Source: a virus
Taxonomy: Duplodnaviria; Heunggongvirae; Uroviricota; Caudoviricetes
Virus record (IMG/VR): IMGVR_UViG_2778261035_000003
Length of the DNA: 4,534 bases
Strand: one strand, 5' to 3'
Part shown: in pieces, positions 1,808 to 4,534 of the stretch
Layout of the letters: each line of letters begins with the position of its first letter
Position numbering within the stretch: the first letter of the stretch is position 1
Notes under the pieces: model-generated
What the model saw: only the letters and a program-made list of their open reading frames with translations
What the model was told of the DNA's origin: nothing
Databases searched by the model: none
Made by a program: the position numbers and the translations under genes

Positions 1808-2952
1808 ACAGTTTAACGGCAAATAACCGTTTGCCGCAACAGCTGGTGGTCAGCGTGGCTGAACACCTGTTGTTACGGCATGAATGCAGATTATCAAATC
1901 ACCTGGCTGTAAGTAACCACAGAGAACTTTACCTGACTGTGGGGGGCGAGTTGTGCAGGAACTTAACTGCTGGTTTCGTGACGGAAGAGGGCTTTATGTC
2001 CATGTTATTCGTTGGGAGCCAGAAACACAGCGCGTTATCTATCTTCGCAAAGACTACCCGCATGAGTGCTTTAGTCCTTTGTGGAAATTCAGGCGTGATT
2101 TTGTTGAGTGCGAAGAACCACCAGCACATTGATTCTGTCATTCCGGGACGTTACACTGTTCAGGCACCTTATAAAGCGGGTGCCGGGATTGGCGTCCTGG
2201 AAATGTTATCGGCGATATATGACGCGCCAGCGTCTTTTTTATCGTCTGCGTCTGCGCACACCCAAATTATGGTGGGCTGGACGGGGGCACCGAAAGGTGC
2301 GCCGGTTTCCGATAACGCCGGTTACGCCAACCCCGTTCAGTTCACCACCAGCGAAATTGGCGTTTCCGGTGGTGAAGGTAATTCACTGTTATCGGAGGCT
2401 GCCATCATGGCTACGATCCCTGCCTTAGTACAACCTGAACTTTGCATTATTGCAGGCAAAGTTGTTACTTCTTCTCTGGCTGTTGCTAGTTATTTCGGCA
2501 AACAACACAAAAACGTAATTCAAAAAATTGCGTCTCTTGAATGCTCTGCCGAATTTACAGAGCTGAATTTTCAGCCCAGTGAGTACATCGACGCATCAGG
2601 CCGCAAACTACCTTGCTATCAAATAACCCACGACGGCTTTGCGTTTCTTGCTATGGGTTTCACGGGTAAACGTGCTGCCCAGTTCAAAGAGGCATACATC
2701 TATGCCTTTAACCAGATGGAGAAACAGCTTTCAAATCCCTCTGTACCGAGCGACGTTGCACATAACGCCAGCGTTCTCTGTTCCTACATTTCATCAATTC
2801 ATCAGGTCTGGCTGCAGCAGCTTTATCCTATGTTGGCAAAAGCCGAATCTCCGCTGGCTGTTAGCTTGTATGACTATATTAATGATGCTTCGGCACTGGC
2901 CTGCCTCATAAATTTGTCGCTGAACCCTTCAGAGGTAAGGGGGCGCAAATGA
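1804..2952 (+). CDS. 382-aa ORF: N-terminal region of unknown function fused in frame to a C-terminal Rha-family (Phage_pRha) regulatory domain; possible internal start at 2407
   Basis: Frame is open for 1149 nt with GC-rich third positions throughout. Start ATG 1804 overlaps the upstream stop (ATGA). Residues about 205-300 (IIAGKVVTSSLAVASYFGKQHKNVIQKIASLECSAEFTELNFQ...YQITHDGFAFLAMGFTGKRAAQFKEAYIYAFNQMEKQL) match the Rha domain. A strong internal RBS GGAGG (2394-2398) sits 8 nt upstream of in-frame ATG 2407, which would give a 181-aa protein with the usual N-terminal Rha placement. Confidence 0.6.
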   Translation: MNSLTANNRLPQQLVVSVAEHLLLRHECRLSNHLAVSNHRELYLTVGGELCRNLTAGFVTEEGFMSMLFVGSQKHSALSIFAKTTRMSALVLCGNSGVILLSAKNHQHIDSVIPGRYTVQAPYKAGAGIGVLEMLSAIYDAPASFLSSASAHTQIMVGWTGAPKGAPVSDNAGYANPVQFTTSEIGVSGGEGNSLLSEAAIMATIPALVQPELCIIAGKVVTSSLAVASYFGKQHKNVIQKIASLECSAEFTELNFQPSEYIDASGRKLPCYQITHDGFAFLAMGFTGKRAAQFKEAYIYAFNQMEKQLSNPSVPSDVAHNASVLCSYISSIHQVWLQQLYPMLAKAESPLAVSLYDYINDASALACLINLSLNPSEVRGRK

Positions 2953-3173
2953 TCCGGAATATTTTCAAACTGTTTACCAATCAGACTTTCCGTTGTCCTC
3001 GTCCGGGTCAGTGGTACACCACGCCTGCAGGGCATGTTCTACGTGTTAGCTTGGTGGACCGTGAATGTCAGAAGGTGATTTGTGAACCGCTGGGCCGTAA
3101 TTACCGCGTCAGTATGCCGCTTATAGCCTTTCGCTCCGGAAAAAACATGAAGCATCTCGGAGGTGCAGCATGA
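2949..3173 (+). CDS. Hypothetical small protein (74 aa), unknown function
   Basis: ATG 2949 overlaps the upstream stop (ATGA). SD-like GAGGTAAGGGGG (2932-2943) lies upstream. Codon usage is consistent with neighbouring genes. Three Cys residues but no recognised motif. Confidence 0.6.
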   Translation: MIRNIFKLFTNQTFRCPRPGQWYTTPAGHVLRVSLVDRECQKVICEPLGRNYRVSMPLIAFRSGKNMKHLGGAA

Positions 3174-3988
3174 GTATGGAGCTGATGGTTAAAGCGATGA
3201 AAATTCGAGTGGGTAATCCATTGCGAAAACTGGTTCTGATCAAGCTGGCTGATAATGCCAGCGATCAGGGGGAGTGCTGGCCCAGCTACCAGCATATTGC
3301 TGACCAGTGCGAGATTAGCAAACGTTCTGTGATGAATCATATTGCGGCCCTTTGTGAGTCCGGGCTGGTAAAAAAAGTCACCCGGAAAGGCGAAAAAGGT
3401 AACTCAAGTAATATCTATCTTCTTCATCTTGATGGTGCAGGAGATTCACTAGGGGGTAGTGCAAATAATTCACTATCTGGTGCAGCAAATTCACCAGGTA
3501 GTGCAGGAGTTACACCAGGGGGTAGTGCAGGAGATTCACCCAGAACCAGTCACTCTTTTGAACCAGTCAATGAACCAGTCAATGAACCAATAGCTGTTGG
3601 TGCATCTGCTGATGAGTCTGTGCGAGTTCGTTCAAACCGACCGGAATACTCTCCGGAGTTTGAGCAGGCATGGCTGGCATATCCCAAACGTGCTGGTGGC
3701 AATTCAAAATCAGCGGCCTTCAAAGCCTGGAAAGCCCGTTTGAACGAGGGGGTAAACCCCGAAACCATGCTGGAAGGTGTGAAACGCTACGCGGGCTGGG
3801 TATCTGCGATGGGTAACAGCGGCACACAATTTGTGAAACAGGCTGTCACGTTCTTTGGTCCGGATCGTCATTTCGAAGAATCCTGGGAAGTTCCTGCGGT
3901 ATCGGCAGCCAGATGCGAAGACCCGTACTTCAAAGCCAGTTACAACAATGTGGACTATAGCCAGATCCCGGCAGGGTTCAGGGGGTGA
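3170..3988 (+). CDS. Putative phage replication initiation / replisome-organiser protein (N-terminal winged-helix HTH_36-like domain, Gly/Ser-rich linker, C-terminal DnaT-like region)
   Basis: 272-aa ORF. ATG 3170 overlaps the upstream stop (ATGA) with SD GGAGG (3159-3163). N-terminus (LRKLVLIKLADNASDQGECWPSYQHIADQCEISKRSVMNHIAALCESGLVKKV) matches the HTH domain typical of phage replication initiators. The central low-complexity linker is encoded by iteron-like DNA repeats. The C-terminal assignment (FEQAWLAYPKR...KAWKAR) is from memory and less certain. Confidence 0.8.
   Translation: MSMELMVKAMKIRVGNPLRKLVLIKLADNASDQGECWPSYQHIADQCEISKRSVMNHIAALCESGLVKKVTRKGEKGNSSNIYLLHLDGAGDSLGGSANNSLSGAANSPGSAGVTPGGSAGDSPRTSHSFEPVNEPVNEPIAVGASADESVRVRSNRPEYSPEFEQAWLAYPKRAGGNSKSAAFKAWKARLNEGVNPETMLEGVKRYAGWVSAMGNSGTQFVKQAVTFFGPDRHFEESWEVPAVSAARCEDPYFKASYNNVDYSQIPAGFRG
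3435..3539. repeat. Iteron-like array: five quasi-palindromic 15-bp cores GTGCA-N5-TTCAC at 21-24 bp spacing (candidate origin of replication)
   Basis: Seen in sequence: cores at 3435-3449 GTGCAGGAGATTCAC, 3459-3473 GTGCAAATAATTCAC, 3480-3494 GTGCAGCAAATTCAC, 3501-3515 GTGCAGGAGTTACAC, 3525-3539 GTGCAGGAGATTCAC. They lie inside the replication gene's linker-coding region, and local codon choice is atypical (gga, tca, cta, agt, aga, ata), suggesting a DNA-level constraint. Function as an origin is inferred by analogy with lambda ori inside gene O. Confidence 0.4.
3543..3590. repeat. Direct repeats of GAACCA(GTCA): four copies, the last three forming a 12-bp tandem GAACCAGTCAAT x2.6
   Basis: Seen in sequence: copies starting at 3543, 3560, 3572 and 3584. 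They encode EPVNEPVNEP in the replication protein and sit immediately downstream of the iteron-like array. Confidence 0.7.
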
Positions 3989-4470
3989 TCATGAGCCTGA
4001 TGAGTGAGATTCAAAAATTCATTGAAAGCAATCCTGGATGTACGACCGGTGATATTGCGAACGCGTTTGCATACTTTCCACGTCCCCGTGTACTGAATAC
4101 GACCAGTAAGTTACGCCAGTGCAGACGTGTCGCTTATCGTAGTGAAGGCAAAACACACCGGCATTTTTCTCGCAAGGCTGTGTTGCCACCTGAGCCGGTG
4201 CTGAAGCATATGAGTGTGGCCAGTAAAAGCTACGTCGGCACTAATGATCAGCGGGTGATTTTGCGCCTGATTCAGCAGGCAGAAGATCTGGAGTCAAGAG
4301 GTTTATTTCGTCGTGCTGCAACGGTGTGGATGGCGGCATTCCGTGAAAGCCACTCCCAGCCAGAACGAAACAATTTTCTGGCACGTCGTGAGCGGTGCTT
4401 ACGGAAAAGCAGCAAGCGCGCTGCATCGGGTGAAGAGTGGTATCTGTCAGGGAATTTCGTGGGGGCTTAA
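3985..4470 (+). CDS. PerC-family-like transcriptional regulator (prophage-encoded, YfdN-like)
   Basis: 161-aa ORF. The C-terminal motif AEDLESRGLFRRAATVWMAAF resembles the conserved LE..G.WRRAA..W core of PerC/Pch regulators (recalled, not searched). Start is either GTG 3985, overlapping the upstream stop, or ATG 3991 preceded by GGGGG (3981-3985); the ATG may be the true start. Confidence 0.65.
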   Translation: MIMSLMSEIQKFIESNPGCTTGDIANAFAYFPRPRVLNTTSKLRQCRRVAYRSEGKTHRHFSRKAVLPPEPVLKHMSVASKSYVGTNDQRVILRLIQQAEDLESRGLFRRAATVWMAAFRESHSQPERNNFLARRERCLRKSSKRAASGEEWYLSGNFVGA

Positions 4471-4534
4471 TGAGTAATAAATATTGCCAGGCGCTGGTGG
4501 AACTGCGGAACAAACCAGCCCATGAACTGAAGGA
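4470..4534 (+). CDS. 5' end of a downstream gene (partial; product unknown)
   Basis: ATG 4470 overlaps the upstream TAA by 1 nt (TAATG). GGGGG (4461-4465) lies 4 nt upstream. The frame is open to the window end (MSNKYCQALVELRNKPAHELK...) with GC-rich third positions like the neighbouring genes. Confidence 0.45.
   Translation, partial: MSNKYCQALVELRNKPAHELK

Follow-up and report, generated by a model that had tools for sequence, protein, structure and literature searches.

PerC of EPEC (89 aa, encoded on pEAF) and PchA, PchB and PchC of EHEC (104 aa) are small, single-domain proteins acquired horizontally, whose genes lie on a virulence plasmid or within prophages. Pch relieves the silencing of LEE1 by H-NS, StpA, Hha and YdgT, and in vitro it reduces the binding of H-NS (PMC4764244). 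The prophage-borne pchABC genes rise in expression upon SOS induction and activate ler; activation of LEE1 is confined to PerC and the group 1 Pch proteins (PchABC), with PchD being without effect on ler and PchE showing an effect of less than 2-fold (PMC5931665). The PerC-like proteins encoded by PICI reportedly had no effect on LEE1 fusions, and EcCIMP1_025 repressed LEE1; its authors noted a similarity to ANR proteins and suggested an ANR-like action (PMC11773190). PchD, PchE (from the P4-like element Sp7/OI-51) and EcCIMP1_025 are, in this respect, mobile-element PerC proteins that depart from LEE activation. The ANR prototype, Aar, is a three-helix protein of 63 aa without a DNA-binding domain that binds both AggR and H-NS (PMC5570504); ANR proteins (Aar, Rnr, Cnr) are single-domain, about 60-70 aa in length, and their genes accompany AraC-family virulence regulators. 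Within E. coli K-12, yfdN of the cryptic prophage CPS-53/KpLE1 has been termed 'the K12 unique PerC homologue' (PMC5931665). We found yfdN in the literature only within expression or overexpression lists, and found no direct functional test of YfdN.

We examined an ORF within a window of 4,534 nt (the whole stretch of DNA analysed) that the first-pass annotation had read as a PerC-like regulator placed within a prophage early operon. It was identified as a yfdN orthologue, joining an N-terminal winged helix (predicted) to a C-terminal PerC/ANR-like module.

The yfdN-type gene and its operon

From its gene content, the window was assigned to a lambdoid prophage, of which it covers the immunity and early-right region. 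The early-operon position proposed for the ORF, right after the replication gene, was borne out by the order of cI-like, cro-like, YmfL/CII-like, Ash/Rha and replication genes (Table 1). The ORF itself exists as annotated, at 3985..4470 on the + strand, and encodes 161 aa when counted from GTG 3985; translation probably starts instead at ATG 3991, giving 159 aa. This ATG is the likelier start because AGGGGG is positioned 5 nt 5' of it, the RefSeq gene for the identical allele has its start set at the matching position, and relatives down to 25% identity begin with MS(L/I) at the equivalent position in the alignment of two-domain relatives.

The Shine-Dalgarno-like run AGGGGGTGA, read directly from the sequence, falls within the final codons and the stop of the replication gene, which indicates that the yfdN-type gene is translationally coupled to it. 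The replication-gene stop (TGA 3986-3988) ends 2 nt ahead of ATG 3991, and the TAA stop of the PerC-family gene has one base in common with the methylase ATG at 4470; on the strength of these stop/start arrangements the replication gene, the yfdN-type gene and the methylase gene are tightly coupled. Terminator-like sites on the + strand were absent between ~2490 and the yfdN-type gene, promoter-like sites were absent near it, and an Rfam scan found no RNA element within its ORF.

Table 1. Features of the window, with coordinates and strand; residue numbers are counted from ATG 3991.
Feature	Coordinates	Strand	Description
CI-like repressor	213-905	minus	S24-peptidase
Cro-like HTH gene	1003-1263
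YmfL/CII-like gene	1256-1807
Ash/Rha-family gene	1804-2952
isrK Hfq-binding RNA match	2164-2240	+	Rfam 63.7 bits (gathering 50)
Terminator-like hairpin and T-run	2221-2234		coincides with isrK 3' end
C4 antisense RNA match	2265-2352	+	Rfam 82.8 bits (gathering 45)
74-aa gene	2949-3173		function unassigned
Replication-initiation gene	3170..3988	+	HTH_36 N-terminus, DnaD/primosomal-like C-terminus; transcribed together with, and coupled to, PerC-family gene
Iteron-like array	3435-3539		four overlapping 39-nt copies starting GTGCA, 62-100% identical, 21-24 nt apart
Perfect tandem	3559-3582		TGAACCAGTCAA x2
Mosaic block	3910..4310		65-70% DNA identity to common yfdN allele; flanks 94-100%
Conserved replication-protein tail	3920-3988		last codons AGG GGG TGA
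Shine-Dalgarno-like run for ATG 3991	3980..3988	+	AGGGGGTGA
YfdN-type PerC-family CDS	3991..4470	+	159 aa plus stop; maximal ORF from GTG 3985
Winged helix-turn-helix (predicted)	3991..4170	+	residues 1-60; H1-beta-H2-H3-beta hairpin; net charge +6; pLDDT 93-97
Near-perfect palindrome	4056-4071		TGCGAACGCGTTTGCA, 16 bp
Variable linker (predicted disordered)	4171..4248	+	residues 61-86; pLDDT 47-59
PerC/ANR-like three-helix module	4249..4413	+	residues 87-141; basic; pLDDT 95-98
Pfam PerC PF06069 match	4276-4428		residues 96-146
C-terminal tail	4414..4467	+	residues 142-159; conserved W-x-L-x-G-x-x-x-G motif; modelled at low confidence
Dam-type N6-adenine methyltransferase, start	4470..4534	+	first 21 codons; overlaps TAA of PerC-family gene

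Two further parts of the operon drew attention. Within the Ash/Rha ORF the isrK and C4 RNA matches both overlap the stretch matching Pfam Phage_ASH (aa 117-212), which suggests an antirepressor-like gene under RNA control of the P1 c4/ant type or the Gifsy-1 isrK type; the N-terminal part of this 382-aa ORF may be untranslated, because the lengths annotated for relatives are 249 or 321 aa. Within the replication gene, the iteron-like array and the tandem that follows it probably represent the phage origin, located inside the initiator gene as in lambda O.

YfdN identity and PerC-family membership

Over its full length the protein has 71% identity to K-12 YfdN, and the match to phrog_1324 (PHROGs, 'transcriptional activator') is likewise full-length, at 1.3e-64. 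Full-length homology and a slot between a replication gene and an adenine methyltransferase gene, the two marks of the YfdN subfamily, were both found. K-12 YfdN has the same two-domain layout and likewise lies between a replication-gene remnant (yfdO-like) and a methylase gene (yfdM); the prophage is a remnant in K-12 whereas it is intact here, and the window allele is of a rarer N-terminal type, its winged helix being 65% and its linker 35% identical to those of K-12 YfdN. The exact protein is encoded on 12 public contigs, where the prophages are intact and inserted next to proBA. We class the ORF as a yfdN orthologue, and the lambdoid E. coli prophage carrying it as intact.

Among 5,426 complete E. 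coli genomes, the 3' half of the gene had matches in 2,555, and this allele matched over the whole gene in only 54; YfdN-type proteins match in about half of the complete genomes of this species. Relatives were also found in Salmonella, Hafnia and Citrobacter. RefSeq labels relatives and orthologues "yfdN: PerC family transcriptional regulator", and a 99%-identical protein already carries the name in NCBI. As the gene is common, already named and already assigned to PerC, its detection carries little weight as a finding.

Pfam PerC (PF06069) matched the protein with 33.5 bits (E 5e-8), above the gathering score of 22.6, which upholds the PerC-family call of the first-pass annotation by the profile check proposed there; each of the 32 two-domain relatives also matched PerC individually (E up to 0.01). 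BLASTP against EPEC PerC (the 89-aa pMAR2 protein) aligned PerC residues 6-51 with residues 95-140 at 35% identity over 46 aa (pairwise E 6e-6). The core A..LE..G..RRAA..W..ER..R..C is common to EPEC PerC and the protein; the EPEC PerC core positions are invariant or nearly so across the 32 two-domain relatives, with A97, L100, R108, A109, R133 and C136 being invariant. A tblastn search of plasmids with the C-terminal module did not reach pEAF PerC.

The same annotation had supposed that about 90 N-terminal residues are no part of canonical PerC (89 aa), and this was correct: PerC homology begins near residue 87-95. EPEC PerC and PchA/B/C share the helical core and the PF06069 match, but they begin at the first PerC helix, whereas the present protein adds a winged helix and linker before it and, unlike canonical PerC/Pch, carries the conserved W-x-L-x-G tail behind it. 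The small single-domain form (about 89-104 aa) was not what was found; at 159 aa with an added winged helix and linker, the protein therefore belongs with the long YfdN subfamily and not with the canonical short form. It is almost certainly a YfdN-type PerC-family protein, as judged by homology. The further suggestion of an extended variant held as to the extension but not as to novelty: the YfdN type, its N-terminal extension included, is widespread, named and annotated, and the extension is the winged-helix domain of a whole subfamily and not peculiar to this locus.

Several database proteins were considered in drawing the limits of this type. PchE and PchD were rejected as examples of the long YfdN type, PchE being located in the P4-like Sp7/OI-51 and described among the smaller variants. 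High-identity proteins with only the C-terminal or only the N-terminal part were rejected as natural stand-alone domains; decayed prophages accounted for most of them, as fragments, products of a frameshift or chimeras created by deletion. In the databases, many entries labelled 'PerC family' are chimeric and join the YfdN C-terminal module to N-termini of Dam, HTH_36 replication protein, RusA or KilA-N/Rha-like type (proteins P0033/P0034, P0036/P0037, P0049/P0055, P0125 and P0128). They probably stem from deletions in decaying prophages, and can mislead surveys of domain architecture.

Membership in the PerC family, together with the behavior of the SOS-induced, prophage-borne PchABC described above, would fit a protein that activates host virulence loci (LEE1/ler) and so couples prophage induction to virulence expression. 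We consider such a role quite improbable. LEE1 activation is limited to PerC and group 1 Pch, the PICI homologues lack it and EcCIMP1_025 opposes it; identity to PerC is only 35%, over 46 aa; the 2,555 genomes with the 3' half include K-12-type strains without LEE, most hosts of the gene, K-12 among them, have no LEE, and relatives extend to the other three genera named. The location also differs, being a phage early operon here as opposed to a virulence plasmid or other prophage sites for PerC/Pch; PchD, PchE and EcCIMP1_025, for their part, are short and lie on PICI/P4-like elements or islands, whereas the present protein is two-domain and encoded in a lambdoid early operon. A protein cannot be labelled an 'activator', or linked to LEE, on the ground of PerC-family membership. 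Members of the family differ, giving activation, no effect or repression, and we infer that the direction of effect is not predictable from membership.

Gene neighbourhood in relatives

Homologues at 34-36% identity showed the order replication gene, yfdN-like gene, adenine methyltransferase (MT-A70), LexA-like and RusA, and the gene directly upstream of the yfdN-like gene encoded a replication protein at each of the 28 full-length viral loci. The upstream replication proteins of these viral loci were of at least three unrelated N-terminal types, yet shared a common tail, ...DYSxIPxGFRG. In the window the last codons of this tail double as the Shine-Dalgarno for the next gene, and this embedded Shine-Dalgarno accounts in part for the conservation of the tail. 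The tail was also considered as a contact hint, through covariation with the winged helix; none was seen, the tail being the same across alleles.

A role in replication might underlie the close and ancient association with the replication gene; the protein would then be an accessory factor that cooperates, at the phage origin, with the initiator encoded upstream, e.g., recruiting or loading the host helicase like lambda P, which occupies the same position. The start/stop overlap with the replication gene, the replication protein directly upstream at the 28 viral loci and at L006, the three N-terminal types ending in one tail, and an iteron-like origin ~450 bp upstream are all compatible with such a role, as is the finding that, in full prophages with the exact protein (L042-L045), no helicase or helicase loader was recognisable between cro and Q beyond the HTH_36/DnaD-like protein. 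We nevertheless regard it as unlikely. A 29%-identical homologue lies directly after, and coexists with, a lambda P-type helicase loader; another distant homologue follows RecT; and a third, in an integrative element, heads an operon beside AlpA, neither of the two being adjacent to a replication gene. These loci weaken the proposal that YfdN substitutes for a lambda P-type loader. The tail, with its embedded Shine-Dalgarno and lack of covariation with the winged-helix allele, also counts against such a role, and every PerC/ANR relative characterised so far acts on transcription or on H-NS. The common denominator of the homologue loci is a phage or mobile-element early operon and not replication as such.

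The slot after the yfdN-like gene is filled by adenine methyltransferases from two unrelated families, Dam (PF05869) in the window and MT-A70 (PF05063) in more distant relatives (L006 1912-2580, L007 577-1239, and many viral loci among L012-L038). This recurrence from unrelated families might indicate that the protein is a partner or regulator of the adjacent enzyme, for instance in the manner of a PapI-like winged helix, at sites sensitive to methylation, and weak matches to FaeA/PapI-type proteins were seen (E 0.18 and E 0.11). These matches were not significant, and the methyltransferase is missing in several loci: a LexA-like gene follows directly in L015 and L016, and unrelated genes follow in L009-L011. 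We hold a partnership of this kind to be very improbable.

Domain architecture, allele mosaicism and possible action

An AlphaFold2 model, computed from the alignment of 32 sequences, divided the protein into the domains listed in Table 1. The N-terminal domain has the H1-beta1-H2-H3-beta2-beta3 topology and a structural likeness to solved winged helices, and is predicted to be a DNA-binding-type winged helix resembling those of MarR, ArsR and BlaI; some relatives matched MarR_2, HTH_24 or Penicillinase_R, and a BFVD fold search returned generic winged-helix matches only. Conserved basic residues are found in the recognition helix and wing (K/R at positions 40, 46, 49 and 57), and these, with the net charge of +6, favour nucleic-acid binding. 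Winged helices can serve as protein-binding modules too. The linker varies in length among relatives and has 35% amino-acid identity to the common allele. Fold matches of the C-terminal helices were limited to generic TPR-like helical repeats, and a phmmer search of PDB sequences found no solved PerC or ANR structure.

The ANR profile (NF033650) matched the protein with 21.2 bits (E 1.9e-4), which is below the NCBIfam cut-off of 32 and does not place it in that family; among the two-domain relatives 25 of 32 gave a match at E up to 0.01, the best being 4e-9. By these profiles the PerC and ANR families look related, and the small three-helix module of ANR proteins resembles the C-terminal module here. 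The protein might then be an ANR-like anti-activator that only binds protein, sequestering an AraC-family regulator or H-NS, with the winged helix as a second protein-binding or dimerisation domain. Repression of LEE1 by EcCIMP1_025, for which ANR-like action was suggested, and the activity of Aar without DNA binding are in accord with this. ANR proteins, however, are single-domain and lack the DNA-binding domain seen here, their genes accompany AraC-family virulence regulators whereas this gene lies in a phage early operon, the profile score is below the cut-off, and the basic residues and charge of the winged helix favour binding of nucleic acid; we think it doubtful that the protein acts through protein binding alone.

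Our favoured reading, which we hold tentatively and at somewhat short of an even chance, draws on analogy with the characterised relatives: the protein would be a DNA-tethered modulator of H-NS-type silencing or regulators. Expressed from the early promoter under repressor control, it would be present only once the prophage is induced or a cell infected, and would act during lytic development. The three-helix module may make contact with a host factor that is itself conserved, of the H-NS family or the AraC type, and could remodel H-NS-family silencing complexes as Pch does, or bind H-NS or AraC-type regulators as ANR/Aar does. The exchangeable winged helix would anchor this module at DNA sites specific to each allele; these would most likely lie on the phage, with sites on the host chromosome a further possibility. 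A possible functional analogy to T7 gp5.5 and H-NST (cited in PMC5570504) can be drawn, whereby an early phage protein would be directed against H-NS silencing.

Comparison with the common yfdN allele gave dN/dS of about 0.08-0.11 for the winged helix, where dS exceeded 2 (saturated), and 0.17-0.28 for the PerC module, where dS was 0.2-0.3. With dN/dS of 0.08-0.28 both domains are under purifying selection, and so are real and constrained; the difference in dS (>2 against 0.2-0.3) indicates that they have had different histories. From the replication gene the divergent mosaic block takes in the 3' end, and from the yfdN-type gene the parts coding for the winged helix, the linker and the first helix of the PerC module. 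Discordance between domains was also seen in P0029/P0083 (N-domain 48% and C-domain 89% identical) and, in the opposite sense, in P0063/P0086 (77% and 47%); it was exceptional, with a gap of at least 30 points in only 6 of 496 pairs. Concrete constructs for testing are provided by the domain model together with the allele mosaic.

A broader and rather improbable extension of the DNA-tethered model may be mentioned, namely that YfdN-type proteins represent the DNA-tethered, possibly ancestral form of a PerC/ANR superfamily, in which a swappable winged-helix cassette delivers a module binding H-NS or regulators, and of which PerC, Pch and ANR would be derivatives without the tether. If this were true, a swap of the winged-helix cassette, as in the rare allele of the window, would re-target anti-silencing. 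The divergent cassette coding for the winged helix also contains the near-perfect palindrome TGCGAACGCGTTTGCA, which may have arisen by chance.
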